Notes: generated from the letters alone by a model not told the origin. A stretch of 64,000 nt of DNA from an uncultured Bdellovibrionales bacterium (GCA_964612055.1 CAZTBI010000001.1:5688-69687), one strand, 5' to 3'. Shown: positions 6,498-58,900, counted from the first letter of the stretch. Program-made: numbers and translations.

Positions 6498-6515
6498 AAG
6501 GCAGTTTTTTTTCGT
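6483..6515 (+). terminator. rho-independent terminator
   Basis: CTGCCT-AGAA-GGCAG followed by T8. Confidence 0.7.
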
Positions 6516-6531
6516 CAATTTGTGCGCTCGG
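6511..6531. repeat. 21-bp duplicate of tRNA-Arg(TCG) 3' end plus flank (TTCGTCAATTTGTGCGCTCGG)
   Basis: identical to 6760-6780, which overlaps the true tRNA 3' end. Confidence 0.8.
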
Positions 6532-6612
6532 CCTGCTTCGGCCCATGCCCTTGGGACGAGAGGGGATTGGTCACAGATTCGGAGGGGATCAGTCACAGCC
6601 GGCTTTAAATCG

Positions 6613-6741
6613 GAGGGAATCTCCCTCGACTAAACCTTTGTTGTCACAAAGGTTTGTCTGGGCACCGCCTCACGATTTCGTCTGCTGACGAAATAACGTT
6701 CCGGCGTTCGACCCCCTACGCAAGCCAAGCAGTTGGCTTGC
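6613..6741. other. ORF-free segment with four stem-loops and degenerate tandem GAGGGGAT(T/C)NGTCACAG
   Basis: hairpins at 6613-6627, 6632-6655, 6675-6694, 6720-6741 (8-9 bp stems). Confidence 0.5.
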
Positions 6742-6771
6742 TCCGAGGCGCAAATTTCCTTCGTCAATTTG

Positions 6772-6845
6772 TGCGCTCGGAGGGGATCGAACCCCCGACC
6801 CTCTGGTTCGAAGCCAGATGCTCTAATCCACTGAGCTACGAGCGC
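6772..6845 (-). tRNA. tRNA-Arg (anticodon TCG)
   Basis: cloverleaf resolved by hand; acceptor GCGCTCG/CGAGCGC, loop CTTCGAA; no encoded CCA. Confidence 0.85.
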
Positions 6846-25936: not shown

Positions 25937-25985
25937 GTAGCTTTCCTATACTACTGAAAGACAAGGTAAATGGCAAAACCTCAAG

Positions 25986-26031
25986 CGGGCAACTCCCGTT
26001 TCCCGACCCCTTCCTATCCGATTCTTGCCGG
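25986..26031 (-). repeat. tRNA-associated repeat, copy C
   Basis: reverse complement reads CCGGCAAGAATCGGA-TAGGAAGGGGTCGGGAAACGGGAGTTGCCCG; first 15 nt are antisense to the T-arm of the adjacent tRNA-Arg(GCG). Confidence 0.75.
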
Positions 26032-26039
26032 ACACAAAC

Positions 26040-26075
26040 AAAAAAAAGAATCCCATAAAGGAATTCTTTTTTGTT
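26040..26075. terminator. bidirectional hairpin terminator
   Basis: AAAAAAGAAT/ATTCTTTTTT stem flanked by A- and T-runs, downstream of tRNA-Arg(GCG). Confidence 0.55.
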
Positions 26076-26081
26076 TCATTG

Positions 26082-26154
26082 TGCGCCCGGCAAGAATCGG
26101 ACTTACGACCTTCTGGACCGCAACCAGACGCTCTATCCACTGAGCTACGGGCGC
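26082..26154 (-). tRNA. tRNA-Arg (anticodon GCG)
   Basis: acceptor GCGCCCG/CGGGCGC, stem TCTGG/CCAGA, loop TTGCGGT; T-loop TCCGATT. Confidence 0.75.
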
Positions 26155-26836: not shown

Positions 26837-26923
26837 GGAAGCGTGGCCGAGTGGTTGAAGGCAACAGTCTTGAAAACTGTCGTACCCGAAAGGGTATCGT
26901 GAGTTCGAATCTCACCGCTTCCG
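26837..26923 (+). tRNA. tRNA-Ser (anticodon TGA)
   Basis: GGAAGCG-TG-GCC-GAGTGGTTGAAGGC...CTTGAAA...long variable arm...GTGAG-TTCGAAT-CTCAC-CGCTTCC-G. Confidence 0.85.
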
Positions 26924-26930
26924 CTGTTGA

Positions 26931-26975
26931 AGTAAAGAAGGAACTACCTTGTGCAGTTCCTTCTTTACTTTTATG
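26931..26975 (+). terminator. 14-bp-stem terminator
   Basis: GTAAAGAAGGAACT/AGTTCCTTCTTTAC plus TTTTAT. Confidence 0.7.
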
Positions 26976-26977
26976 AT

Positions 26978-27025
26978 GGAGGTGAGATTCGAACAGGGAA
27001 GGGGTCGGGAAACGGGAGTTGCCCG
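26978..27025 (+). repeat. tRNA-associated repeat, copy A
   Basis: GGAGGTGAGATTCGAAC (antisense of tRNA-Ser(TGA) T-arm) + AGGGAAGGGGTCGGGAAACGGGAGTTGCCCG. Confidence 0.75.
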
Positions 27026-27136
27026 TTCGGGGTGACCCAGACTTGTTCTGGGACTAGAGGGCGGCCCGTCTCGACGAGGCAAGCCGAGGTGGAAAGCCCT
27101 ATAGAACGCAGTCCGCTTCTGCATTTGTAGTTTGTT

Positions 27137-27760
27137 ATGTCAAAAAAAGCTCTTCTTTTTGTGAGTGTAGGAGCGGTTCTTATCGGACTTCTTGTGTTTT
27201 GGTATTTTTCTCGAGACTGGGAGATCAAGAACTATCCTTCTTCGAAGAGCGGGCCGGTACTGATGTTCGGTGATAGCTTGGTAGAGGGGGTTGGCGCGAC
27301 AGCGGGCAATACATTGCCAGATCAGCTTGGGAAATCCATCGGCATCTCTATTTTGAATTACGGTGTCAGTGGCGACACGACCCGTGATGGACTAGCGCGA
27401 CTCAGTCCGGCGCTCAAAGAAAATCCCAAAGTTGCAATCATTCTTCTTGGAGGGAATGATTTCTTGAAAAAGATTCCTCGCGAGGAAACCTTTCAGAATT
27501 TAGAAAAAATTGTTGTTGCTTTTCAGGCACAAGGATCGATCACGGTAGTTGTCGGAGTACGGAGTGGTATCGTCAGCGGGGGAGCGGACGAAGAATATGA
27601 AGCTCTGGCCGAGCGTACTGGATCGATCTATGTATCAGATGTCCTTTCCGGTGTTTTCGCTCACTCAGATCTGATGAGCGATGCCCTTCATCCGAATGAT
27701 CGTGGCTATCAGCAGATTGCGGAGCGTTTGACTCCATTACTCTCGAAATACTTGAAATAG
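27137..27760 (+). CDS. SGNH/GDSL hydrolase
   Basis: GDSL block I (VLMFGDSLVEG), block III (GGNDF), block V (DALHPN). Confidence 0.75.
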   Translation: MSKKALLFVSVGAVLIGLLVFWYFSRDWEIKNYPSSKSGPVLMFGDSLVEGVGATAGNTLPDQLGKSIGISILNYGVSGDTTRDGLARLSPALKENPKVAIILLGGNDFLKKIPREETFQNLEKIVVAFQAQGSITVVVGVRSGIVSGGADEEYEALAERTGSIYVSDVLSGVFAHSDLMSDALHPNDRGYQQIAERLTPLLSKYLK

Positions 27761-36540: not shown

Positions 36541-36604
36541 CTGGGAGGAGTCTTGATTTTGGGGTAAAAAGTTGATAGGCTGAGTATTGTAGCGTAAAAA
36601 CCCT

Positions 36605-36691
36605 GGAGAGGTGGCCGAGTGGCTGAAGGCACCACACTGCTAACGTGGCGGGGCGTTAAAACCCTCGAGAGTTCGAATCTCTCCCTCTCCG
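36605..36691 (+). tRNA. tRNA-Ser (anticodon GCT)
   Basis: GGAGAGG-TG-GCC-GAGTGGCTGAAGGC...CTGCTAA...long variable arm...GAGAG-TTCGAAT-CTCTC-CCTCTCC-G. Confidence 0.85.
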
Positions 36692-36739
36692 CAAAGTAAA
36701 GAATGATGCTCTTGTGGCATCATTTTTGCTTTTGAGCTA

Positions 36740-36784
36740 GAGTAGATTCGAACGGGGAAAGGGTCGGAAAACGGGAGTTTTCCG
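36740..36784 (+). repeat. tRNA-associated repeat, copy B
   Basis: GAGTAGATTCGAAC + GGGGAAAGGGTCGGAAAACGGGAGTTTTCCG, homologous to copies A and C. Confidence 0.7.
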
Positions 36785-36843
36785 TGAGAGGAAAGCAGCG
36801 AAGTGCTGAGAACCGTGGGTTCTTAGAAGGAGCAAAGCGACGC

Positions 36844-36902
36844 GTTCAATCTCTCCCTCTCCGCAGTAGTAAAAAGGAATCATCTTGCGTGGTTCCTTTT
36901 TT
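36844..36902 (+). repeat. direct duplicate of tRNA-Ser(GCT) 3' end plus terminator
   Basis: GTTCAATCTCTCCCTCTCCGCA + hairpin + T-run parallels 36671-36735 with about 80% identity. Confidence 0.7.
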
Positions 36903-36960
36903 GCTTCTACCATAGACTTATAGTGACCGTGGGATTCTAGGGACTATTTTTTCAAACTTT

Positions 36961-37365
36961 ATGACTACGGGTTATTCGGGCACACCGCTGAAACAAAAAC
37001 TGGGTATGAAGGAGGGGATGAAAATCGCCCTGGTTCATCAACCGAAGAATTACGCGGCTTTACTCGATGGGCTACCGGAGGGTGTGCGACCGGGTCGTAA
37101 AGATATTGATTTTGTTCATATCTTTTCAAAAGACGAGCGCAGTCTCAGGCAGGATATCGAGCGGTACAAGGATCTCATCCGCAAAAATGGCATCATCTGG
37201 ATTTCTTGGCCAAAAAAATCTGCCAAAGTCGAAACGGATATTACGGAACAGACTATCCGAGACATCGCTCTGCCTCTAGGGCTGGTTGATATCAAAGTAT
37301 GCGCTGTTGATGAGATATGGTCTGGTTTGAAGCTTATGTGGCGAAAAGAATTGAGAGGGCTATGA
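36961..37365 (+). CDS. DUF3052-like hypothetical protein
   Basis: YSGTPL..KLG N-terminal pattern. Confidence 0.4.
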   Translation: MTTGYSGTPLKQKLGMKEGMKIALVHQPKNYAALLDGLPEGVRPGRKDIDFVHIFSKDERSLRQDIERYKDLIRKNGIIWISWPKKSAKVETDITEQTIRDIALPLGLVDIKVCAVDEIWSGLKLMWRKELRGL

Positions 37366-37374
37366 TGAGCATCT

Positions 37375-38490
37375 TTAATCAAAAGAAAAGAAGCGTTTGA
37401 TTTTTGCAAACACTGCCCCAATACTTTCTTTTACATGATCAGTCTTGCTTTTGACGTCGTTGCTAGATCCTGTTTCCGTGTCTGAAACTCTTTTTTTATT
37501 ATCAGCACTTGCAGTATCTTTCTTTGGATTACTCGTAGTGAGTTCGGTCATATTTCGACTTTCCTGGCACTCAGGAGCCAGAGTTTCTCTGCAGGAGAGG
37601 GATAAATCAATAAAGCGTGTGACGTGGTCGAAAACAGTGAGCCCGGTCTCCTTCACCTTCCAGTTGTATACTCCATCACCAGCGAGGCCGTGACCAGAAC
37701 CAATAGCCGTTATTCTCTGGTAAGGGATATTGACGGCGGTTGCTTGGCTTACCAATCGATCCGACATTTCATAGGGTACGGTGGTGTCAGTTGTTCCATG
37801 AATGATGAGAACGTTGGCATCACCACGACTCATGTGCTGCTTGTTCCCTGGTATACCACCCGATATTTCAATGATACCGATCGGGTTTTCCTTTTTGTTG
37901 AAGACATAGTCAGCAAGATAGGCCATGTTGATAGCCGTGAAAGCACCAGCTGAACCGCCCTGGATAAACCAGCGGGTGTCAATTTTCCCTGCAAACTGTT
38001 TCTGTACAAATTCCTTGGCTTTGATGGTATCTTCCAGAGCGACCAGTGCGCCATACGTCTGTTCCGGTCTCCCGCCTTCCTCTGTGAATTCGGTGACGAA
38101 TGCCTGTGCTGCATCTTCGCTCAATGACTCGATTACGGGTTTTTTGTTTTTCTCTACAAGTCGATAATCTATAGCAAAGACAGCGTAACCTGCCTCTGCA
38201 AAGCGAATCTTGTTTTCCACGCCGGACGATCTGCTTCCATGAAGAAAGCCTCCTCCGTGAATCTGACCTATAGGAATAGGGAGCTTATCGGAGCCGTTTT
38301 TACAGTTTGTTGGTAAGTAGGCGTCTAAGTACAAAGGTACTGTTGTAGTATTGTTTCCCTCTTGAATAACCCCATCACCATACTTGATGTCTTTTGTAAT
38401 GGTGTAAGAGCATTCGTCGCTCGCATGAGCGGCTCTCAAGGGAAGGAGTGCTGCGATAATAAGAAGAAAAAAGACCTTTTTCATACACAA
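37375..38490 (-). CDS. secreted alpha/beta hydrolase (carboxylesterase/lipase)
   Basis: signal peptide; HGGGF oxyanion hole; GGSAGA nucleophile elbow. Confidence 0.7.
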   Translation of the reverse strand: MCMKKVFFLLIIAALLPLRAAHASDECSYTITKDIKYGDGVIQEGNNTTTVPLYLDAYLPTNCKNGSDKLPIPIGQIHGGGFLHGSRSSGVENKIRFAEAGYAVFAIDYRLVEKNKKPVIESLSEDAAQAFVTEFTEEGGRPEQTYGALVALEDTIKAKEFVQKQFAGKIDTRWFIQGGSAGAFTAINMAYLADYVFNKKENPIGIIEISGGIPGNKQHMSRGDANVLIIHGTTDTTVPYEMSDRLVSQATAVNIPYQRITAIGSGHGLAGDGVYNWKVKETGLTVFDHVTRFIDLSLSCRETLAPECQESRNMTELTTSNPKKDTASADNKKRVSDTETGSSNDVKSKTDHVKESIGAVFAKIKRFFSFD

Positions 38491-47275: not shown

Positions 47276-48484
47276 ATGAAGTTTGTTTTCAAGGCAAAAA
47301 ATAGTCAGGGCAAGGTACGCGAAGGCATGGTAGAGTCTCTCAATGCTGAGTCGGCCGCTACCATATTGGAACGCAACAACCTAGTGCCGATTTCGATAGT
47401 CGAAGAAAAGCAGGTGCCAACTATCGTGAAGCAAGTCCAAAAGCTGTGGGAGGGCGTAAAGCAGAAAGAGCTTATGGTGTTCTTTCAGCAGCTTTCGACG
47501 CTCATTGGGGCGCATGTACCCGTGGTTTCGGCCCTCCGCACTATTGAAGAGCAGGTAGCTAACCGCTATTTCAAGATCGTGATCAAGGAAATGGCCGATG
47601 ATGTCGAAGATGGGTTACAGTTCTCATCAGCGATCGAAAAACATGCAGACGTTTTTTCGCCACTCACTGTCAGTATGCTCCGCGCTGGGGAGGTCTCCGG
47701 AGAGCTTCAGCGGGCCATCGATGTGGTTTCTCAGAATATTGAGAAAAACTACCAGTTGAGTGCCAAGATCAAAGGTGCCTTGTACTACCCGATCTTCGTC
47801 ATCACGGTGGCTCTTATCATTGGTTTTTTGGTGGTGACCTTTATCTTGCCGAGAATTACTGTCATGATCAAGGACCTCCATGTTCCTATCCCATGGTATA
47901 CGGCAGTGCTCATTTGGGTGGGAGATTTCATGAGTGTCTATTGGTGGGCAGTACTCCTGGCGATTATCGCCATGGTAGGAGGAGTTCTGTATTATGCTCG
48001 GACTCCGGTGGGGAAGAGAGAGTGGGAGCAGCTTCTCCTCAAGATTCCGGTTGTTGGGGCACTCTCGCGCAATATCTATATCACGCGTTTTTCAGAAAAT
48101 CTTGCTGCTTTGCTTGATGGTGGCATTCCGGTAGTACGGGCTCTGACTATCGCCAGTGAAGTAGTGGGCAATAATGTCTACGAAAAAATTATTTTGAAGG
48201 CGGCTGATGAGGTGAAGTCAGGCGGTACTATGAGTACAGTCTTTCTTCGTTCCAATGAATTCCCCCCAATTGTTTCGCAGATGGTACGGATTGGTGAGGA
48301 AACAGGGTCGCTTGCTTCGGTACTGATGAGTGTTGCCAAGTTTTATAATCAGGAGGTAGAAACTATGACGCGAAGCTTGACCGCTTTGATCGAGCCAATT
48401 CTTATTGTCTTTCTGGGTATCGGTGTCGGTATACTGGTGGTTGGGGTACTGCTTCCAATTTACAATATCGCTTCGCAGTTGTAA
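47276..48484 (+). CDS. pilC: type IV pilus platform protein PilC (two T2SS-F domains)
   Basis: duplicated GspF domains, three TM. Confidence 0.85.
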   Translation: MKFVFKAKNSQGKVREGMVESLNAESAATILERNNLVPISIVEEKQVPTIVKQVQKLWEGVKQKELMVFFQQLSTLIGAHVPVVSALRTIEEQVANRYFKIVIKEMADDVEDGLQFSSAIEKHADVFSPLTVSMLRAGEVSGELQRAIDVVSQNIEKNYQLSAKIKGALYYPIFVITVALIIGFLVVTFILPRITVMIKDLHVPIPWYTAVLIWVGDFMSVYWWAVLLAIIAMVGGVLYYARTPVGKREWEQLLLKIPVVGALSRNIYITRFSENLAALLDGGIPVVRALTIASEVVGNNVYEKIILKAADEVKSGGTMSTVFLRSNEFPPIVSQMVRIGEETGSLASVLMSVAKFYNQEVETMTRSLTALIEPILIVFLGIGVGILVVGVLLPIYNIASQL

Positions 48485-48584
48485 CTGTAACGGTTGTGGT
48501 CTGAAGGGGAAATATATGTTATACTAAAAAAAGAAAAGAAGAGTAAAAATAAAAATTAAAAACAAAAAAGAAGGAGGTGAGCAT

Positions 48585-48965
48585 ATGAAAAAAACATTGA
48601 AAGGATTTACGCTGATTGAACTTTTGATCGTTATCGCCATTATTGGTATTTTGGCATCGATCGTGTTGGTAAGTTTGAGCGGTGCTCGTGTAAAGGCTCA
48701 AAAAGCAGCATTTAAAGCTGAAGTAGCTGGCGCGACTGCTGGTCTTAATATCGGGTGTGATGATGCTGATACTGTTACATTTGTAGAACCGGCTGATACT
48801 GCAACAACAGACTGGGCTGCTTTTACGGGCACTCCAAGCTGTGGAGCGGCAGGTGATGGTACGTTCTCTATCGACGCTGTGCCTTTGGCAGCTGGTGTTA
48901 TTGCGGATGGCTGTACTGGAGCAACAGTAACAGAAACAGGTGCTGATTTTACAAATTGTCCATAA
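48585..48965 (+). CDS. type IV major pilin
   Basis: AAGGAGGTGA RBS; class III signal MKKTLKG|[17 protein letters not shown]; two Cys near C-terminus. Confidence 0.8.
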
Positions 48966-49002
48966 TCTCTCGTATCATTTAAATCAAAGGGAGGTGAATC
49001 TT

Positions 49003-49362
49003 ATGAAAAAAACATTAAAAGGATTTACGCTGATTGAACTCTTGATCGTTATCGCGATCATCGGTATTTTGGCGTCGATCGTGTTGGTAAGCTTGAGCAG
49101 CGCTCGAGGTAAGGCTCAGTTGGCAGCATTTAAAGCTGAAACAGCTGGTGCTGTGGCTGGACTTCTTATTGTATGTGATACAGGCAATATTACGCTCCCA
49201 AACGATACTACAACTACGAATTGGGGGGCAATAACTAACCAGAGTTGTGGTCCAACAAGAGGTGGTGGATTTAACGTTACAGCAACCCCGATTAATGCGG
49301 GTATTGTCTGTAATGCTACAGTGAGTGGTACTGGAACCACGTACGTTGGAGCAGGATGTTAG
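49003..49362 (+). CDS. type IV major pilin paralog
   Basis: AAAGGGAGGTGA RBS; N-terminal about 50 aa nearly identical to the upstream pilin, C-terminal divergent. Confidence 0.8.
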
Positions 49363-49380
49363 TGTCTTGCAATAAAGCTT

Positions 49381-49415
49381 TTAAAACAAGGGCGTAATGC
49401 CCTTGTTTTATCTTA
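49381..49415 (+). terminator. intrinsic terminator after pilin pair
   Basis: ACAAGGGC-GTAAT-GCCCTTGT followed by TTTATCTT. Confidence 0.7.
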
Positions 49416-49517
49416 TAGATCACGCTTCAGTACTTAATGTTCGTTGTTCAAGAGACGGGTCTATGGTATTCTAAGAGTACTAATACTCCCTTTAACGGGT
49501 AGTTTATTTTTAGTATT

Positions 49518-51191
49518 ATGACCATACCAAGGGTACTCTCCCAGAGTCTGGGAAGAATTTATCGGCTGTTCGTATCGAGTACTGCCCTTAGGTTTTTTTT
49601 TGTTTTTATTTTTTTCTGCCTCTTTTTTTCGTTTTACCTCTTTTTCTATACTTTCACCTCTACTGATGACCAATTCTTCAATGTAAGATTGGCGCAAAAA
49701 ATCAGCGTCGAGGGGCTTAGTATTCTTCAAAACTTCAATGAATTTTCTGAAGTAACTGCCCGTCCATGGGTTTTTAATATTCTTTTTTATTATCTCCTTA
49801 TTCCTTTTACGTGGTTTTATCCTCTTGAACTAGGGATTAAGGTCTTTGCTGTAACTAGCTTGGCGTTTACATTTACCGTCATCTTCTTTTTTCTTGAAAA
49901 AAATAATATTAAAAAGTCGTTTCTTTGGTTGTTATTAGCTGTTGGTTTTTTCTTTACCCCTCCTGATCTCTGGCATTTTTTAATGGCACGTGCCTTTGTA
50001 TTGGTGCCAGCTTTACTTATCCTCCTTCTCTATTTTTTACAAATAAAGAATTATGGAGCTCTTTTTTTTCTATCCTTCCTTTCTTTTTTTCTCCACACAG
50101 CAACTTTCTTTTTGCCGCTGGTAGTAGGAATAATCTTTTGCGTTTTTTCTTGGCAAAGTACAAGACGTTCAGTATTGTTTTCGTTGTTGAGTGTTGTAGG
50201 CGGAACTGCCGCAGCGCTTCTTCTTGGCGCTCTTTTTATCCCGGGTTTTCTTCCCATTGTGTGGAATTTCTGGGATTCTCTTTATAGAATTGTAGTATCT
50301 TTTCATGTATCAAGTTTCGTGCAAATTGATGAAGGAATGGAAAGTTATCCGACGACGTTGTTTGATATTTTTTCACAGCACGCGATTTTGATCGCGCTTC
50401 TTATCATGTTCACCGGTTCGTACGTAGCACGTATTTTTGAGGCGAATCGAAGAAGGGTATCTTTTGGAAATCCTGTGCAGCTCACCTTGATGGCGCTTTC
50501 CATTCTTTTTTTATTGGGATCATTTATTACTAAGCGTAACCTGGATTTTTTCTTCGTCTTTTCTAGTCTATTTCTGCTGCTGGCTCTCTCTGAATTCTTT
50601 GAAACTATAAAATTCAATGTAAAAAGAATACATATTTTTTCTTTAGGGGTGGTTATTTTCGTGGCTCTCGCCTCTCAATTGTTGGCTATTATGGATATGC
50701 TTGCTGTCTCTTCTGATTATGCAAGTATCAAAGGAGCCGCTCAATGGGCGAAAGAGCATACAGAAAAAGGCAGCGTGGTCTTCAATCCTACGATGAATTT
50801 TTTTCCAACATTTTATTTCTATAATGAGGGTCATAATAAGATGATTGTCGGTATTGAGCCGCGAGATTTTTATCAGACCAATTCAAGGAAATACTGGCTC
50901 TGGTATAACCTCTCTGCTTATGGAGTGATTTGCGGAGAGCAAAAGTGCGCTAGAGAAACTGCTTTGCGTGACGCGATGCTACAATCTTATAAAGACCAAT
51001 GGTACAAGGAAAACGGAGAAAGAGTGAGGGATCTTCTTCTGAATGAATTTTCAACGAACTTGATACTTGTAAGGCCTGATTTTATTGCTTTACAGCCATT
51101 GTTGCAAAACAGTCCTTCATTTGAAGAGGTCTACGCTACGCCGATAACGAAAACATATACTCTGTATCGTATAAAAGAAATTGATAAATAA
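49518..51191 (+). CDS. GT-C-fold-like polytopic membrane protein (ArnT/PMT/TfpW-like glycosyltransferase candidate)
   Basis: about 12-13 TM N-terminal domain plus about 130-aa soluble C-terminal domain. Confidence 0.4.
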   Translation: MTIPRVLSQSLGRIYRLFVSSTALRFFFVFIFFCLFFSFYLFFYTFTSTDDQFFNVRLAQKISVEGLSILQNFNEFSEVTARPWVFNILFYYLLIPFTWFYPLELGIKVFAVTSLAFTFTVIFFFLEKNNIKKSFLWLLLAVGFFFTPPDLWHFLMARAFVLVPALLILLLYFLQIKNYGALFFLSFLSFFLHTATFFLPLVVGIIFCVFSWQSTRRSVLFSLLSVVGGTAAALLLGALFIPGFLPIVWNFWDSLYRIVVSFHVSSFVQIDEGMESYPTTLFDIFSQHAILIALLIMFTGSYVARIFEANRRRVSFGNPVQLTLMALSILFLLGSFITKRNLDFFFVFSSLFLLLALSEFFETIKFNVKRIHIFSLGVVIFVALASQLLAIMDMLAVSSDYASIKGAAQWAKEHTEKGSVVFNPTMNFFPTFYFYNEGHNKMIVGIEPRDFYQTNSRKYWLWYNLSAYGVICGEQKCARETALRDAMLQSYKDQWYKENGERVRDLLLNEFSTNLILVRPDFIALQPLLQNSPSFEEVYATPITKTYTLYRIKEIDK

Positions 51192-51194
51192 TGT

Positions 51195-52235
51195 ATGGAT
51201 TCTCAGTTACGTATTATCGTGATTGGAGGTGGATGGGTAACCGAGAATAGGCATTTGCCTGCTTTAAGAAAAGAGAGGCGTATCTTGCTTCAGTCTGTAA
51301 TAAGCAAGAATGTCGATCGGGCTGAATTTCTCAAAAAGAAATTTTCTGCCAAGACATATTTTGGCGGGGATGGAGTGGATTTCTCACAGGTACTCCAAGG
51401 TTGTGATGCGGTAGTGATAGGATCGGACCCATTTTCTCATTATGAAATTGCCAAACAAGCCATTGCTTTAGGTAAGCATGTTTTAATGGAAAAACCGCTG
51501 ACGTTGTCGGTGGTAGAGTCGGCCGAATTGGTAGGGTTAGCTAAAGAGAAAAAGATACGTTTTGCGGTGGTGCATAATTTCCAGTTTTCCCAATCAGCCT
51601 CTGCTCTGAAAGAAGATATAGAGAAGGGCAAACTCGGAGAGATCCGGTCTTTGGAGGCAAAGCAATATAGTAACGAGAAAAGAAGACTGCCAGTTTGGTA
51701 TGAGGATTTGCCCTGGGGTCTTTTTTATGATGAATCGCCGCATCTTTTGTATCTTCTTGAGATGGTAGGAGGAAAACAAAGCCTTCAACATTCTCAGGTG
51801 CTGTTTCGATCAGGGGTCACTACGCCTGTGTTGGTGGAAGGTCTTTTAATAGGTGAAACAGGAATACCTTCGGTGCTGAGTATGAACTTTTCTGCTTCAC
51901 TTTCTGAATGGTTCCTTATTGTTCATGGATCAAAACGCACCGGTATACTTGATATTTTCCGGGATACTTACTTTTCTCTCCCAAATGACGGTAAACACAC
52001 GCCCAAGGATATTTTCCGGACTTCATGGCTCGTCTTTTTTGGGCATTTTACGGGAGTTGTAAAAAGTGGAATCAAGGTATTGAGAGGGGGCTATCTTTGC
52101 GGTAATGAAGAAGTGGTCAAGAGATTTGTTGATGCTGTTTTGGATAACAGGCCGCTGGGGACTCTGGATGCTGAAAACGGACTGCGGATAAACGCTTTGC
52201 AACATGAAATAATGGAGCGCTCATTTCATCTATAG
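51195..52235 (+). CDS. Gfo/Idh/MocA family NAD(P)-dependent oxidoreductase
   Basis: Rossmann IVIGGGWVTENRHLPAL and EKP motif. Confidence 0.8.
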   Translation: MDSQLRIIVIGGGWVTENRHLPALRKERRILLQSVISKNVDRAEFLKKKFSAKTYFGGDGVDFSQVLQGCDAVVIGSDPFSHYEIAKQAIALGKHVLMEKPLTLSVVESAELVGLAKEKKIRFAVVHNFQFSQSASALKEDIEKGKLGEIRSLEAKQYSNEKRRLPVWYEDLPWGLFYDESPHLLYLLEMVGGKQSLQHSQVLFRSGVTTPVLVEGLLIGETGIPSVLSMNFSASLSEWFLIVHGSKRTGILDIFRDTYFSLPNDGKHTPKDIFRTSWLVFFGHFTGVVKSGIKVLRGGYLCGNEEVVKRFVDAVLDNRPLGTLDAENGLRINALQHEIMERSFHL

Positions 52236-53380
52236 TGTCTATGCTTGCAACGAAAAAGAAGGTGTTGGTAGTGGCTACTCATTTTCCTCCCCACACAGGG
52301 GGAGTAGAAAAATACACCCTCGACTTTTTTTCAGTATTAGGACAGGAATATCGAAATCTCGACATCAGTATTCTTTCCCTGCAAACCGCCAAAGCACCAA
52401 AGCGTGAAAGGATAGGGGTGCTAAATGTGGTGAGGGTTCCATGTTTTGGATCAGATATTAATCCATTTTTTTCTCCTAAAAAAGTCCAGGGAGCTTTAGA
52501 GGACATGGATTTTTCTTCTTTCGATCTCGTCATTACCCAATGCCGGTATTATCTTTTCACTGGATACATGGTCTTTACAGCGCGGCGTAAAGGAATGCCT
52601 GTGTTGCACATCGAGCATAATGCCGGATACATGCTTCACAAGAACCCCCTCATTACTTTGATAGCGAGACTGTACGATGTTTTTATTGGTAGAAAAGTTT
52701 TGAGTAAGGCGACGTCTATTGTTGCGATTTCTGAGAGCGTGAAAAAATTTCTTAAAGAAAATTTCAAGATAACGGGTGCTATTGAAGTGATTCCTGGCGG
52801 CATACAGACAAAAGAGTGGGTCGGTTCAGAATCTCTTTCTGATACAAAAACGTTTGTGTATTGCGGAAGGCTTATTCGTGAAAAGGGCGTTTCGATCCTT
52901 TTGGAAGCATTCGAAATGTTGCAAAATAAGTATCCGGAAACTTCTCTCAAGATTCTGGGAGATGGTCCTGAGATGGGGCTTCTAAAAAGACAAGTTTTAG
53001 AAAAAAAATTGGAGAAACGGGTGGAGTTCTTTGGTGTAGTATCAAGCGATTTTATAAAGAATCTTTATAAAATAAAACCCGTCTTTGTCAATCCTTCATT
53101 CTATGCAGAAGGTTTTCAAATCGCTCTCTTAGAAGCAGTAGCGAGTGGATTACCGATTATTACTACTTCAGTCGGCGGGGCAGGGGAATTGCTCGAAGCA
53201 AATAGGAGTGCCCTTTTTGTTGTTTCTCGGGATAAAAAATCTCTTTTTTATGCCATGGAAGAGTATTTGCTTTTTCCACAAAAAGCAGATACGTATAGCT
53301 CTGTCGCTTCACGGAAGGTGAAGGAATATTTTTCGCAAGAGAAAATGGTTGAAAAGTTCTACCGATATGTTTTTTCATAG
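52235..53380 (+). CDS. family-4 glycosyltransferase (GT-B)
   Basis: EGFQIALLEAVASGLPIITTSVGG (E-X7-E motif). Confidence 0.8.
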   Translation: MSMLATKKKVLVVATHFPPHTGGVEKYTLDFFSVLGQEYRNLDISILSLQTAKAPKRERIGVLNVVRVPCFGSDINPFFSPKKVQGALEDMDFSSFDLVITQCRYYLFTGYMVFTARRKGMPVLHIEHNAGYMLHKNPLITLIARLYDVFIGRKVLSKATSIVAISESVKKFLKENFKITGAIEVIPGGIQTKEWVGSESLSDTKTFVYCGRLIREKGVSILLEAFEMLQNKYPETSLKILGDGPEMGLLKRQVLEKKLEKRVEFFGVVSSDFIKNLYKIKPVFVNPSFYAEGFQIALLEAVASGLPIITTSVGGAGELLEANRSALFVVSRDKKSLFYAMEEYLLFPQKADTYSSVASRKVKEYFSQEKMVEKFYRYVFS

Positions 53381-53756
53381 AAATCTTCAATTTTTTCGTT
53401 TTGTTGTAATCGGAGGTTTTTCTTATGGATTAAGTCTTCTCTTTTTGATATTTTTGATAGAAATTCTTGCCCTTCCTTACCTTGTAGCAACAGCACTTGT
53501 CTTTTTTGGTATCAACGGTTTAAGCTTTTTTATGAATAAGAGGTATACTTTTTTATTAACAGGGGGTCTTTTCCAAACAGAGCTTCTTCGATATTATGGA
53601 ATCATGCTTCTCAGCTTGATTCTGAATTTGGCTGGAATGTATATGTTGGTAGGGATTCTGCAGTTTTCTATAGTCGTAGCGAGTATAATTGTGTCAGGCG
53701 TTCTTTTATTTTTTAACTATTTTTTTCATAAAAATTTTACTTTTCGTACCAAATAA
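53367..53756 (+). CDS. GtrA family protein
   Basis: four TM; FFRFVVIGGFSYGLSL; overlaps the GT4 stop. Confidence 0.6.
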   Translation: MFFHRNLQFFRFVVIGGFSYGLSLLFLIFLIEILALPYLVATALVFFGINGLSFFMNKRYTFLLTGGLFQTELLRYYGIMLLSLILNLAGMYMLVGILQFSIVVASIIVSGVLLFFNYFFHKNFTFRTK

Positions 53757-53760
53757 TTTT

Positions 53761-54510
53761 ATGGCTCAGTACGATATTTTCTTTCAGAACGAACATCCAA
53801 AAATAGCTCAGAGATTTTTAACCTGGCTGAATTTTTCTTTGTTTCAGTTTCTTAAAAGGAACATTGTTTCTAAAGAAGCAAGCAAGGTGCGTATCTTGGA
53901 GATCGGTCCTGGGAAAGGATACTTTTACCAAGCAATATCGAAAGCAAAAAATGTTTCTTATGTGGCATGTGACCGAAACATTTCTTTCCGTCAATCTTTT
54001 CCAGAAGCTGAATTTTACCTTGCTACAGCGCCTTCCTTTCCTGAAAACATCGGTACTTTCGACATGATTTACGCATCTTATGTAGTGGAGCATCTGAGTG
54101 ATGGATTGGCTGTGGCAGAACTTCTCCGCGGTTGTCTGAAACACCTCAATCCTGGTGGGATTGTAGTTATAACTTGTCCAAATGCTTTGGCGCAGAAGTT
54201 TGAATTTTGGAATATGGATTATACCCATCGATATCCTACAACCGCACGAAATATACACATGGCTTTTTTAGAAGCCGGATTTTCTAGCACGGAGATATAT
54301 GAAATATCTGGATTGTTGACGTTCCCAGGCTTTACTTTCAGGCCATTTCAGTGGTGTCTCAAAGTGGTATTGTTTTTTTATCGTTACAGAGTGATGCATT
54401 TTTTCTTTGGCTGGATTTTGAAAAAGAAATTATACGAATTGAATAACTCTTTCTACCGATTATATTGTCTAGTAAAGCAGGAAAATTTACTGTGTATTGG
54501 TAAGAAATAA
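53761..54510 (+). CDS. class I SAM-dependent methyltransferase
   Basis: motif I LEIGPGKGY; ATG 53761 follows the GtrA stop. Confidence 0.7.
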   Translation: MAQYDIFFQNEHPKIAQRFLTWLNFSLFQFLKRNIVSKEASKVRILEIGPGKGYFYQAISKAKNVSYVACDRNISFRQSFPEAEFYLATAPSFPENIGTFDMIYASYVVEHLSDGLAVAELLRGCLKHLNPGGIVVITCPNALAQKFEFWNMDYTHRYPTTARNIHMAFLEAGFSSTEIYEISGLLTFPGFTFRPFQWCLKVVLFFYRYRVMHFFFGWILKKKLYELNNSFYRLYCLVKQENLLCIGKK

Positions 54511-54514
54511 AACT

Positions 54515-55660
54515 ATGACAGAAGTTTCTGTTGTTATTCCTTGCTTGAATGAGGCAAAAACTTTGCCTATCGTTATTGATATGGCCAAAAGCGGCCTGTC
54601 GAAAGTTTCGCTTTCTGGAGAAATAATGATCGCTGATAACGGTTCAGATGATGGTTCTCAGGTTTTGGCGGAATCACTTGGTGCCCGGGTGGTTCCTGTG
54701 AAGAACAGGGGGTATGGCAATGCTCTTGCCACGGGAATTCTTGCTGCAGAAGGAAAGTATATTATCTTTGCTGATGCCGATGGTTCATATGACTTCAGTC
54801 AGCTTCCTGTCTTTATTGAGGCTTTACGAAAGGGCGCCGATCTTGTTATTGGCAATCGCTTTGCAAGGAAGATGGAGAGAGGTGCTATGCCAGCGCTTCA
54901 TCGTTATCTTGGAACTCCTGTGCTTACTGCGCTTATCAATTTCTTTTTCAAAACAAAAATCTCTGATTGTAATTGTGGCATGCGGGGGATAAAAAAAGAG
55001 TCTTTTGAAAAAATGCAGATTCTTTCGACAGGCATGGAATTTGCTTCAGAAATGGTTATTAAGGCTGGATTACTCGGTATGAAAGTGGTAGAGGCACCGA
55101 TTTATTTTATGAAAGATAAAAGAGATAGAGAACCTCATCTGCGTACTTGGCATGATGGGTGGAGGCATCTGCGTCTCATTCTTATCTACGCCCCTAACTA
55201 CCTATTTATTTATCCAGGAAGCATCCTTTTTATTTCGGGAAGCATCCTACTTTTTATGCAGCTTTTTGGGCCGGTGATTATCGGACCGATGTATATGGAT
55301 CTTCATTTTATGATTCTTGGGCTTATGCTGAGTGTTCTAGGTCTTTCTATTTTTCTTATGGGAGCTACTATCAAGCAATTTTCTTATCAACACGACTACT
55401 ATTTGGAGGATTTTACCGTCACTTTTTTTGAAAGAAGTTCTTTTGAAAAGAAGCTTGTTCCAGGAACTCTTTTTTTCGCTATCGGGACAGGGTTGGCCGT
55501 GGGGATCTTTATTCGTTGGATTGGCGGTCATTTTGCCAATCCTAACATGCTGCGAGGAGCACTTTTTAGTCTCTACTTTATGTCTACTGGTTTGCTTGTT
55601 TCCCTTTTCTCTTTTCTTGAGCTTGTGATGAGAATACAGAACAAAGAAAAAAATAAATGA
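54515..55660 (+). CDS. polyprenyl-phosphate sugar synthase-like GT2 (DPM1/ArnC-like) with C-terminal TM domain
   Basis: VVIPCLNE, DNGSDDGS, D-x-D and four C-terminal TM helices. Confidence 0.8.
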   Translation: MTEVSVVIPCLNEAKTLPIVIDMAKSGLSKVSLSGEIMIADNGSDDGSQVLAESLGARVVPVKNRGYGNALATGILAAEGKYIIFADADGSYDFSQLPVFIEALRKGADLVIGNRFARKMERGAMPALHRYLGTPVLTALINFFFKTKISDCNCGMRGIKKESFEKMQILSTGMEFASEMVIKAGLLGMKVVEAPIYFMKDKRDREPHLRTWHDGWRHLRLILIYAPNYLFIYPGSILFISGSILLFMQLFGPVIIGPMYMDLHFMILGLMLSVLGLSIFLMGATIKQFSYQHDYYLEDFTVTFFERSSFEKKLVPGTLFFAIGTGLAVGIFIRWIGGHFANPNMLRGALFSLYFMSTGLLVSLFSFLELVMRIQNKEKNK

Positions 55661-55939
55661 TTTTTTCTTTGTTGCCGCTGGGGCCCTGCTCTAGGAGTCG
55701 CGTGCCTACAGAACATTGTTGATTTCGGTCTCCCTAGGGATTTCGAACCTAATCGGAACCGATCTTTTTAGAGGCTTCTTGGTGCAGGTGATAGCCATTT
55801 GGCGCTTTTTTTTCTAATGTTGGCAATACGCATCTGTGGTAACGGTATTTTGAACGTAACCGAGCTTTCTTTTGGATTTTTCTTAGTATATACTATGGAT
55901 GTATTTTATCTTTTTTAACCAATAACCTTTCAGAACGGT

Positions 55940-58900
55940 ATGTTGTACTCAGCGTTCGTTTCCCGCGCTGTTCTTGTTGTAACGTTTTCCTTGTTCGCCT
56001 TCTTTGCTGCTCCTTTTTTGGTATCTGCGGCTACCGAAGTATCTGGTCCTATCGATACAAATACCACGTGGACCAAAGCTAATGGTCCGTATGTGGTCAC
56101 TGGTCTGGTGACGGTGGAGAAGGGCGTGACGCTTACTATTAAACCGGGCGCGGTGGTGAAAGTGCAACAAGCAGGCGGAGGCTTTTACAACGGCCTTACT
56201 GTTAAAGGGAAATTGAATGCTACGGGTACCGCTACGGCCCGTATTTCTTTTACTGCTTATACTGATGATTCCGTAGGGGGCGATACGAACGGTGACGGAT
56301 CAGGAACGTCCCCAGCGCCTGGTTATTGGACAGAAATCCGTGTAGCGAGCAAGGGCATAGCGAATTTGCGCTATGCCAATGTCCGTTATGCAGGGAGTAC
56401 ATCAGAAGATGGAAAATCAAACGGCCTGCGTAATGATGGAGGGACGCTATTGTTTGAAAATGGAACCTTGGAATATAACGAGAATTACAGTCTTTATCAC
56501 TCGGGCGGTACGAGTACTGTTGCATCAAGTAAGGTACGCAATCATAATATAGCTATCTCTGTGCAGAATCCCTTTGTTTCCGTGACGGGATCGGAGTTTT
56601 CTGGAAACCAACAGGTGTTCGATATCGGTCCTGGTGGAAATGCTTGGATTTCTGAATCAGGTAACACTATTGTAGATGGTCAAAGGGGATATATATCTAT
56701 CCCCGGAGCCAATATTACGAGTGATACGACCTGGCAAGGAAGTAGCTTTCCCTATGTCATTTCCGGTACTGTCGTTGTCAATCAAGGCGCTACTCTTACC
56801 ATGAACCCGGGCGTGATTATCAAGGGAAGAATCAACAACTCCCTTTTCATGATACAAGGTACCCTTCTGGCTCTCGGGACTGCCGAAGCCCCTATCATTT
56901 TTACTGCTGCCAATGATGATGCCGCTGGAGGGGATACGGATGGCGACGGCGGCATTCCGGAAGCGGGATACTGGAAAGGGATTCGCGTGGAACCCACCGG
57001 TACTGCTAGGTTCGATCATACAGCTGTTCGTTACGCGGGAGGGTATGAGTACGCATATACTGAATTCTCGAACCTTATCAATCAGGGCGGTACCCTTGAG
57101 TTTACCAACTCAGAGACTTCTTTTGCTAGTCAAAATGGTATCAAGCACAATGCTGGAACGACGACGGTGGCGGGGAGTAACCTGGCACATACTCCAGTAG
57201 GTGTTTATATCACTGCTCCTTTTGTTTCCGTGACTGACTCGGTATTTGATACTACTCCAACAGCCATAAGTGTTGCTGGCGGTGATTACTCCTCAGATAT
57301 TTTTACAGCATCGGGTAATACATATGTCGGGAACCAGGTTCCTATTATTGAGATATCTAGCATGAATGTTGTCGGGAATGTTACATGGGGAAGTAGCTTT
57401 CCCTATGTCATTTCCGGTACTGTCGTTGTCAATCAAGGCGCTACTCTTACCATGAACCCGGGCGTGATTATCAAGGGAAGAATCAACAACTCCCTTTTCA
57501 TGATACAAGGTACCCTTCTGGCTCTCGGGACTGCCGAAGCCCCTATCATTTTTACTGCTGCCAATGATGATGCCGCTGGAGGGGATACGGATGGCGACGG
57601 CGGCATTCCGGAAGCGGGATACTGGAAAGGGATTCGCGTGGAACCCACCGGTACTGCTAGGTTCGATCATACAGCTGTTCGTTACGCGGGAGGGTATGAG
57701 TACGCATATACTGAATTCTCGAACCTTATCAATCAGGGCGGTACCCTTGAGTTTACCAACTCAGAGACTTCTTTTGCTAGTCAAAATGGTATCAAGCACA
57801 ATGCTGGAACGACGACGGTGGCGGGGAGTAATTTAACCAATAACGGCGCTTACGGGATAGAGAGTTCTTTGTTCTCATCTAATATCGATGCGCGTAATAA
57901 CTGGTGGGGAAGTCCGTCCGGACCATATCATGCAACAAAAAATCCTGATGGTACTGGTAATGGAATATCGGGTCGTGTCAGTTTTCAGCCTTGGGCTATG
58001 GCACCATTTGATATCGGCTTGTCTTGCGTTGTTGGTACTAAGGGCTGTTACTCCAATGTTCTCTTTCTTCCAGGTATTATGGGGAGCAATCTGTATCAGT
58101 CAGATGAAGAGAAGTGTTGGTTACAGGATATGAACCATGTTGGAGATACTGACTATGATTGTGTAAGGATGAGTAGCGCTGACACTCCGAACACTTCCGG
58201 GCTGCGTACGAAAAATTTAGTATCTTACGATGGGTTGGCGGCTCCCTATCAAGCGATAGAAGATGCTATGAAGGGGTGGCAAACGGAATTGGGTATCGCG
58301 GCGATTACCACTCCGTATGATTGGCGTTATGATTTCGATCACACTGTACGAAGTGGTACCGTGGAGGGTAATGGATATATTTCCTATGAAGACACGGTCA
58401 GTAAGGGGTATATCGAAAAAGAACTTCGGGCGCTGGCAGCGAATTCAAAAACTGGAAAAGTAACAGTAGTAGCGCATTCCATGGGTGGACTAGTAGCCAA
58501 AGAGCTGTTTTCAAAGATCGGGAGTAGTGAGACGGCTCGTCTAGTTGATAAGTTTATTTTGATTGCTTCGCCGCAACTTGGAACCCCCAAGGCAGTAGCT
58601 GCGCTGCTTCATGGTACGGACATGGCGTTAGGGAGTATTTTTTGGACTCTTGTTACGGACGCTCAAGCGCGAGGACTTTCTCATGACATGCAAAGCGCTT
58701 ATAATCTACTTCCCTCACAGGAGTATCTGGATTCTCTGGAGCGTGATGGGAATGGCGTACCATATGATCCGGCAGTGAGATTCTCGAATGAAAACGGTTA
58801 TTTCGACCGTATGATCGGAGATTATGGTGACAATATTGTTGATCGGACGAAACTTGCTGGGTTTATGTCGGATGGCCAGTGGAGCGGTACATCATTCAAT

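Follow-up and report, generated by a model that had tools for sequence, protein, structure and literature searches.

A small structured-RNA cassette, possibly mobile, delimited by a duplicated tRNA-Ser(GCT) 3' end

The duplicated tRNA-Ser(GCT) end and cassette B

The window analyzed in this study is a stretch of 64,000 nucleotides (GCA_964612055.1 CAZTBI010000001.1:5688-69687) deposited as part of an uncultured Bdellovibrionales bacterium. Immediately downstream of one of its nine tRNA genes, tRNA-Ser(GCT), lies a short non-coding element, designated cassette B. An initial annotation had claimed that the 3' end of this tRNA and its terminator are duplicated downstream, and this was borne out. 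The sequence AATCTCTCCCTCTCCGCA forms an 18-nt direct repeat (18/18 exact) at positions 36676-36693 and 36848-36865, with a spacing of 172 bp. GTTC precedes both copies, and G57 is absent from the second, which gives a 22/23 match over the longer segment. A scan of the 64 kb for the tRNA-Ser(GCT) 3' end, allowing up to three mismatches, returned these two copies and one unrelated match with three mismatches (0.04 expected). A hairpin and a T-run come after each copy of the tRNA end, with arms at 36692-36709/36717-36734 for the first and at 36871-36882/36890-36901 for the second; the two trailers align with ~68% identity, and the differences between them keep the stems.

On its distal side, a protein-less cassette of ~170 bp (about 110-180 nt plus the repeats) is bounded by the duplicated tRNA end. 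The parts of the cassette follow one another in a set order: the 3' segment of the host gene (X1), usually a terminator hairpin, an arm that is the reverse complement of X1 (the anti-arm), the core, and a second copy of the host segment (X2). In the window, the following features were recognized, all on the + strand:

36605-36692 (ARAGORN) or 36605-36691 (Rfam RF00005, 53.8 bits), +: intact tRNA-Ser(GCT) gene, host of cassette B
36671-36693, +: X1, which covers the tRNA from G53 through its 3' end, GTTCGAATCTCTCCCTCTCCGCA; pairing partner of the anti-arm and proximal direct repeat
36694-36739, +: terminator 1 or apex hairpin, AAGTAAAGAATGATGC-TCTTGTG-GCATCATTTTTGCTTTTG, with a short linker; inverted repeat
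36740-36753, +: anti-arm GAGTAGATTCGAAC, reverse complement of the T-loop and the 3' side of the T-stem of its own tRNA, its end lying opposite G53
36754-36843, +: conserved structured core, type 1 (nhmmer E = 5e-14; fold; compensatory and G·U changes)
36758-36779, +: the core 22-mer as found in cassette B
36765-36784 (hairpin Pa), +: start of the core, GGGG-AAAGGGU followed by Pa, CGGAAAAC-GGGA-GUUUUCCG
~36796-36808 (hairpin), +: junction of the core, UGAGAGGAAA, with a small hairpin
~36808-36826, +: hairpin Pb, ...GAGAACC-GUG-GGUUCUU...
3' region of the core, +: AAGGAGCAAAGCGACGC
36844-36865, +: X2, the far-side copy of the tRNA 3' end, GTTC-AATCTCTCCCTCTCCGCA, G57 missing
36866-36905, +: terminator 2, ~68% homologous to terminator 1, with stem-preserving changes
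36906-36950, +: degenerate remnant of a second, older unit, CTACCATAGACTTATAGTGACCGTGGGATTCTAGGGAC, which aligns to the anti-arm and core start of the first unit

The imperfect terminal inverted repeats previously proposed for the ends of cassette B are real: the anti-arm GAGTAGATTCGAAC is complementary to the tRNA sequence GTTCGAATCT over 10 bp without mismatch. It is also complementary, with two bulges, to GTTC-AATCT-CTC at 36844. A mini-hairpin motif (GCGAAGC / AGCGAAGCG), present at 36796-36808, recurs near the 3' ends of cassettes at many other loci, e.g., L009, L019, L020, L039, L058 and L085.

The duplicate tRNA end and terminator had been placed at 36844-36902; both are found there, but the homology goes further, to 36950. 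The segment 36906-36950 gave an alignment score of 67.1, compared to 52.6 ± 4.6 for shuffled sequences (maximum 66.3; z about 3), and further signs in this segment are a weak profile match at 36925-36944 and a direct repeat. Since the unit homology runs past terminator 2 into 36906-36950, cassette B consists of two successive units, of which the distal one is decayed. Terminator 2 is probably the older or native one.

Distribution, fold and pairing of the cassette family

The repeat family to which cassette B had been assigned exists. BLAST and profile searches located core copies at 36753-36828 (+), 26993-27038 (+) and 26017-25983 (-), each just 3' of a tRNA gene. A 22-mer common to the three window copies (AARGGGTCGGRAAACGGGAGTT), with a chance expectation of <1 in the genome collection searched, matches at least 120 places, in metagenome-assembled genomes labelled mostly as Patescibacteria or as a lineage of the candidate phyla radiation (CPR). 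These labels comprise Saccharibacteria, Paceibacteria/Parcubacteria, Moranbacteria, Kaiser-, Uhr-, Berkel- and Falkowbacteria and others, while some are a generic "bacterium". About nine third-party annotation (TPA) bins with the core are labelled Bdellovibrionales or Gammaproteobacteria (L023, L024, L025, L029, L031, L047, L065, L091 and L106); these labels are probably wrong.

All family counts given here (124 copies and subsets of them) are among the matches listed. Eighty-six of the 124 copies were found downstream of a tRNA gene on the same strand, at a distance of 20-123 nt, and tRNAs of essentially every identity are represented. A single core type was found with >20 tRNA species as well as behind protein genes, and the type-2 core occurs at Ser, Arg (twice), Gly, Thr, Asn and Phe tRNAs. 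The closest neighbour of a core by sequence belonged to a different tRNA in 46 cases and to the same one in 12; there is no tie between core lineage and tRNA identity. The non-tRNA copies follow rplK-like, rplL-like and uvrB C-termini or lie at terminators, and their arms and repeats match the local sequence. Because of this, the repeat architecture is a property of the element and not of tRNA attachment sites. Direct repeats at protein-gene ends reach >55 nt, the range across copies being 13 to >55 nt. In most genomes the copies are few, with ~5 extra cores on 136 non-seed tRNAs, compared to three plus one of another type on the nine tRNAs of the window.

The family is defined by three features: a core GGGAARGGGUCGGRAAACGGGAGUU... 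with Pa and Pb, a preceding complementary arm, and a following direct copy. All three are present in cassette B. Cassettes A and C (described below) show the first two, and cassette D has the same architecture with another core. Literature searches returned no description of such a cassette. The family is previously undescribed and matches no described RNA or mobile-element family.

The cassette is best described as a putative structured RNA encoded on the tRNA-sense strand. The fold comprises a closing stem formed by the anti-arm and X2, the invariant hairpin Pa (CGGGAAAC-GGGA-GUUUCCCG), the conserved Pb and optional hairpins. The core forms a multi-way junction, in which the GNRA hairpin Pa and Pb, with an AACC-GNG-GGUU apex on a variable stem, are connected by purine-rich joiners. 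The Pa stem is kept through 16 G:C to A:U double changes, window B included, and shows 11 G·U against 3 A·C combinations. Pb occurs as 48 distinct sequences, all stem-keeping; a bulged A breaks an ungapped register in this hairpin. The modules fold with z = -2.7 to -5.5. RNAalifold applied to a MAFFT alignment, in which the variable stems were misaligned, recovered Pa alone, and register-anchored pseudo-alignments with our own scripts were used instead.

A scan of the whole window with the 4227 covariance models of Rfam 15 at gathering score matched tRNA models only, and at E <= 10 the two regions searched gave sub-threshold noise, with no ribozyme or intron family. The defining boxes or genes of C/D-box, H/ACA, T-box and retron RNAs were not seen, Rfam being the formal test for these classes. 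A G-quadruplex core was rejected, since a G:C to A:U double change keeps Pa while breaking a G-run. The higher frequency of G·U than of A·C combinations speaks against an RNA from the opposite strand or a TnpB-like scaffold with a 3' guide.

The arms preceding the core are tailored to the adjacent gene. The longest exact match between anti-arm and local tRNA averages 10.9 nt (maximum 22), compared to 5.7 for mismatched tRNAs, and the arm nearly always ends in GAAC, opposite G53-C56. When 44 modules were anchored at G53, 81.9% of the cells paired, compared to 67.0 ± 1.2% after shuffling of partners (0/500), the register having been picked by best match, which inflates the absolute pairing and leaves the shuffle contrast unaffected. 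The covariation score between anti-arm and tRNA was 0.426 vs 0.165 for shuffled partners, and a slid register gave at most 54% pairing. At tRNA genes, the anti-arm spans the acceptor 3' strand back to G53. In columns where X1 and X2 differ, it follows X1, the real tRNA, in 271 cases and X2 in 45. Among the non-Watson-Crick positions of anti-arm and X1, there were 86 G·U and 43 A·C combinations (p = 2e-4), whereas no such bias was observed against X2.

It had also been proposed that other core copies be checked for a partial tRNA duplicate on the far side. Of the 86 tRNA-linked copies, 66 carry such an X2, whose exact match spans at least 9 nt (mostly 14-19 nt) and stops where the tRNA stops, but cassettes A and C of the window lack a significant one. 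X2 starts at tRNA position 58, 59 or 60 in 42/52 modules. It is preceded by an altered T-loop-like motif, e.g., GUUC-AAUC or GUGAGAU, and the intact T-loop is never recreated. The anti-arm is complementary to tRNA positions 53 to ~72, and X2 supplies positions 58-76. In modules with alignable trailers, the tRNA-derived part of X2 is identical to X1 at 171/176 positions, compared to 226/330 for the trailers. A terminator separates tRNA and module in 29/52 modules. RNA templating of X2 from mature tRNA was rejected, since X2 carries no CCA where the gene is without it and the duplication often enters the trailer.

This constraint at the RNA level, with its G·U excess and covariation, is what would be expected of a cis- or trans-acting device useful to the host, in which the anti-arm would serve as guide, the core as catalytic or protein-binding scaffold and X2 as a spare 3' segment for the replacement, repair or processing of 3' ends. 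The layout (a guide complementary to the ligated junction, a core and a 3' exon) would be shared with 3'-replacement trans-splicing ribozymes or with introns of the T-loop. Such a device would agree with the fixed T-loop position (58-60) at which X2 begins, with the identity of its tRNA-derived part (97%, compared to 68% for the adjacent trailers), and with a core 22-mer that is invariant across deep CPR lineages, present in few copies in most genomes and embedded in a core conserved far better than flanking coding DNA. However, the upstream tRNA is complete and a terminator is usual, so that splicing is unneeded and much transcription should stop before the module. The core, at ~80-100 nt, matches no ribozyme or intron family even at E <= 10, and module B lacks a preceding promoter-like site. 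Cassettes A and C are without X2 and the far-side copies of D are fragmented and nested, which indicates that cassettes can decay; moreover, the contrast between X2 and trailer is equally explained by a trailer coming from a donor lineage. We regard a host-useful device as the main rival reading, unlikely but deserving serious consideration. More improbable still, in our opinion, is a new class of guide-bearing RNA, in which a programmable antisense arm would be combined with a small conserved core that is catalytic or recruits a protein, and with a 3' segment in reserve; this RNA would exchange, repair or splice the 3' ends of tRNAs and some mRNAs in CPR bacteria or insert itself by that chemistry. 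Such an RNA would be a natural analogue of engineered 3'-replacement trans-splicing ribozymes.

At locus L052 (60-460, -), an intact tRNA-Gln is followed by the fossil 3' half of another tRNA-Gln, which starts in the anticodon arm, and then by a type-1 cassette. The T-loop of the fossil is split at 57/58 by a 32-nt GC-rich hairpin. This arrangement suggested an obligatory T-loop intron, an idea that was rejected, as the interrupted copy is the fossil and an intact tRNA lies upstream.

Relatives and possible mode of spread

Orthologous sites were located through homologues of the upstream GH5 gene, the homologues of the downstream DUF3052 gene not being syntenic. An unoccupied site, proposed earlier as a check on integration, was found in L134 (GH5 70% identical), where tRNA-Ser(GCT) is followed by a single terminator and then by the neighbouring gene, with no insert. 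This single terminator is homologous to terminator 1 of the window. In L133 (GH5 79% identical) the orthologous cassette is present, while L130 carries at tRNA-Ser(GCT) a cassette of a different type, with its own far-side copy, ending TCTCCCTCTCCGCA. In L023 and L106, syntenic with the window at 72-79% nucleotide identity, different inserts were found on the same Ser and Arg tRNAs. Since the same tRNA-Ser(GCT) is empty in one relative, carries the orthologous cassette in a second and another type in a third, the cassette is an insertion. Older units are located distally and have decayed.

The cassettes of the window and L133 agree at 39/41 positions in terminator 1, 41/45 in the core and 18/19 in Pb, compared to 74% in the flanking GH5 gene, and the X2 of L133 shares the missing G57 with that of the window. 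As this agreement shows, together with trailers that differ between the X1 and X2 sides in the manner of orthologues, the terminator travels with the unit. Relative to GH5, the tRNA-Ser(GCT) segment is inverted in L133 (2745-2960, with cassette) and in L134 (2557-2718) compared to window 36552-36712. In contigs of near-identical strains from the Logan assemblies (L122, L123, L125, L126 and L127), the sequence always breaks inside tRNA-Ser(GCT), at 36634-36666, which probably reflects a branch in the assembly graph caused by sequence common to other tRNA-Ser genes or by structural variants. A metagenome scan for the unoccupied allele TCGAATCTCTCCCTCTCCGCAGTA returned two non-orthologous tRNA-Ser loci only and was uninformative.

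In principle, the duplication in the window could stem from a rearrangement on the spot, without a mobile element, through replication slippage, fold-back template switching or unequal crossing-over. Cassette B looks like ~1.6 tandem units, and its combination of inverted and direct repeats would resemble products of fold-back template switching. Neither the presence of the same conserved core at >=120 unrelated loci and genomes nor the different cassette types at one tRNA among relatives is explained in this way, and we consider such an origin very unlikely. Unequal crossing-over may, however, have amplified units after a first insertion.

The initial annotation had read the duplication as the canonical footprint of integration into a tRNA 3' end, with the core repeat as the only cargo left. 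On such a reading, the repeats would be the attL and attR scar of an island integrated by a tyrosine or serine integrase and later deleted to about 150 bp, in the manner of a cis-mobilizable element (CIME). The first half of the claim stands: the tRNA 3' end bears the signature of an insertion, with ties to the repeat family. Direct repeats running from the T-loop to the tRNA 3' end are the classical geometry of tRNA-integrating islands, which the 18-23 bp repeats reproduce, and both the unoccupied site and a DUF3052 and hydrolase islet found downstream of tRNA-Ser(GCT) in some relatives only would suit an island. That islet lies outside the X1-X2 interval, however, and the content between the repeats is stereotyped and conserved in structure across CPR lineages. 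As this stereotyped size and structure recur so widely, the cassette is not a random deletion remnant. The same core occurs at >20 tRNA species and at protein-gene ends, a pattern that an integrase with a fixed attachment site does not produce; in addition, the anti-arm is tailored to each tRNA and X2 is without an intact T-loop. The reading as an island scar thus fails on integrase, specificity, content and T-loop alike, and we give it hardly any credence.

A check for recombinases, also proposed earlier, gave nothing. A Pfam scan of 20 open reading frames (ORFs) of the window identified housekeeping and glycan-synthesis genes only, with no recombinase, reverse transcriptase or transposase. 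Clustering of the proteins encoded within 2.5 kb of 121 copies returned L11, NusG, GTPases and RF2, and no recurrent recombinase or reverse transcriptase. Searches of 2.9 million viral contigs, and of phage and plasmid records, gave no match to the core.

Downstream of cassette B, window 36961-38490 holds the DUF3052 gene and a BD-FAE/alpha-beta-hydrolase gene. Both are missing from L134 and from the P0124 contig, where tRNA-Ser(GCT) abuts a phosphoribosyltransferase gene. In L121, an identical DUF3052 protein is encoded behind an MFS transporter gene, and the similarity to the window begins exactly at 36960. The stretch looks like a variable islet and rearrangement breakpoint beside tRNA-Ser(GCT).

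On balance, we lean towards the view that the cassette is a mobile, non-autonomous structured-RNA element that enters by recombination within the tRNA 3' segment. The mobile unit would be [X - terminator - anti-arm - core]. In linear order, anti-arm - core - X - terminator, the unit would give an RNA that is closed by a stem and has its own terminator at the end, and an RNA intermediate is for this reason conceivable. The unit would enter through one crossover inside the shared X, at a point 3' of T-loop position ~58, regenerating an intact tRNA now followed by the terminator of the cassette and pushing the old X and the native terminator downstream. Because X2 is without an intact T-loop, which the tRNA retains, new units would be added next to the tRNA. 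Such a crossover would account for what was observed: a regenerated tRNA, displacement of the old X and the native terminator, trailers that differ in the manner of orthologues while X is identical, an X2 lacking the T-loop, and new units in the tRNA-proximal position. In the folded tRNA-sense transcript, the partner of the anti-arm would be the 3' half of the tRNA or else X2, the latter pairing closing the core.

Several points weigh against mobility of this kind. A carried pair of X and anti-arm does not explain how one core lineage comes to reside at dozens of targets, arbitrary protein-gene ends among them. The empty site in L134 could reflect cassette loss and not the ancestral state, and a strain at 98% identity has the same arrangement with a module 100% identical, i.e., no polymorphism. 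The invariance of the 22-mer across deep CPR lineages and the few copies per genome fit a host-useful RNA as well as a selfish one. No recombinase, reverse transcriptase or transposase recurs near the copies or among the window ORFs scanned. The absolute pairing of the anti-arms is inflated, as described above. Finally, no free circular or RNA form was observed.

Several known systems share traits with the cassette. As in tRNA-targeting integrative elements and CIMEs, a direct repeat of the tRNA 3' end flanks the insert, the tRNA is regenerated, and the site is reused with older copies in distal position. Unlike tRNA-integrating islands, the cassette has no integrase, its content is constant, tiny, structured and non-coding, and its anti-arm is tailored; the core has many targets, including protein genes, the repeats range from 13 to >55 nt, and X2 does not overlap the T-loop. 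Small multi-copy elements resembling miniature inverted-repeat transposable elements (MITEs), such as Correia/NEMIS, Rickettsia RPE and REP/BIME, are likewise non-coding with pairing ends; they are located inside genes or at their 3' ends and can serve as hairpins or terminators in RNA. However, the terminal inverted repeats of MITEs are fixed element sequence accompanied by a short fixed target duplication, whereas the ends of the cassette repeat the target sequence, and its duplication is long and of variable length. MITE-like families are also confined to the genus level, in contrast to a core conserved across a superphylum.

In group I introns and trans-splicing ribozymes, a guide beside the core spans the junction (cf. 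P1/P10 on the internal guide sequence) and the 3' exon follows, an order to which that of anti-arm, core and X2 may be likened. Group I introns are also mobile and occur in tRNA genes. T-loops of tmRNA are known to host them (bioRxiv 10.1101/2020.01.27.920355). The core of the cassette measures only ~80-100 nt and gave no Intron_gpI match (P3-P9 core) even at E <= 10. Moreover, the 3' exon being duplicated, the host tRNA has no interruption; guide and tRNA are usually kept apart by a terminator, and no U·G marking a defined splice site was recognized. Group II introns of class C insert just downstream of intrinsic terminator hairpins, with upstream sequence recognized by pairing between exon-binding and intron-binding sites (EBS/IBS), to which the cassette may be likened. 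It is, however, 10-20 times smaller, and domain V/VI, an Rfam match and a reverse transcriptase were not found; in addition, group II insertion makes no target duplication. The 3' external transcribed spacer (3'ETS) of leuZ, a sponge RNA of E. coli, is also lodged in a tRNA 3' trailer and is made from the tRNA transcript, but 3'ETS RNAs have no antisense arm to their own tRNA, no duplicated tRNA end, no mobile core and no spread among genes.

CPR bacteria, or Patescibacteria, account for much of bacterial diversity; their genomes are tiny and are considered poor in mobile elements and regulatory RNAs. The cassette is a non-coding module conserved across this superphylum at the 3' ends of tRNA genes and of highly expressed protein genes. 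If mobile, it would represent a new way to target and regenerate essential genes without encoding a protein; if functional, it would point to unknown 3'-end biology of tRNA or mRNA, e.g., guide-directed processing, repair or exchange. It should be noted that the family accounts for many "partial tRNA" fragments and spurious small ORFs beside CPR tRNA genes, and such fragments should not be mistaken for what integrated islands leave behind. The family lends itself readily to modelling.

Cassettes A, C and D and further features of the window

Cassettes were found on four of the nine window tRNAs, three with a related core and one of another type (D). Besides cassette B, these are:

26837-27125, +: cassette A; tRNA-Ser(TGA) (26837-26924), terminator hairpin, anti-arm, type-2 core from 26995
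25979-26154, -: cassette C; tRNA-Arg(GCG) (26081-26154), strong terminator (26042-26072), anti-arm, 5' fragment of a type-2 core
6511-6845, -: cassette D; tRNA-Arg(TCG) (6771-6845), same architecture with a different core (6575-6722)

In B, A and C, the arms preceding the core are reverse complements of the T-loop and T-stem of their own tRNA over 10, 14 and 15 nt exactly, at offsets of 50-57 nt. At the remaining six window tRNAs, the arm match is at most 7 nt, and the null rarely exceeds 9. The anti-arm of cassette A (GGTGAGATTCGAAC, 26981-26994) pairs over 14 bp exactly with its tRNA; no significant X2 was found, and the cassette runs into an ATG at 27137. That of cassette C (CCGGCAAGAATCGGA, 26017-26031) matches over 15 bp the unusual T-arm of tRNA-Arg(GCG) (TCCGATTCTTGCCGG), the downstream arm having changed along with it.

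Cassette C has no significant far-side tRNA copy and is truncated before a promoter-like site of tRNA-Arg(CCG), which was recognized as TTGCCA-17-TAGTAT at 25948-25976 (-), the point at which the cassette is cut off. Its distal part has apparently been replaced by the promoter of this next tRNA.

In cassette D, the anti-arm GUAGGGGGUCG closes on UGAUCCCCUCC and the fold has z = -5.4. Its far-side copies are fragmented and nested: GATCCCCTCCGA is followed by CTGTGACC|AATCCCCTC and then by the 21-nt CCGAGCGCACAAATTGACGAA with a strong terminator. The 21-nt repeat, which comprises the tRNA end and trailer, is located at 6780-6760 and 6531-6511. This pattern suggests several rounds of insertion.

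Elsewhere in the window, the region 48000-56000 has a low GC content (0.39-0.41, compared to about 0.48). Its genes, for a methyltransferase, a GFO/IDH oxidoreductase and glycosyltransferases of the GT1 and GT2 families, probably form a surface-glycan cluster that was acquired. The GC skew is positive in every 2-kb window, mostly from +0.09 to +0.20 with one value near zero at 22-24 kb, independently of gene orientation.

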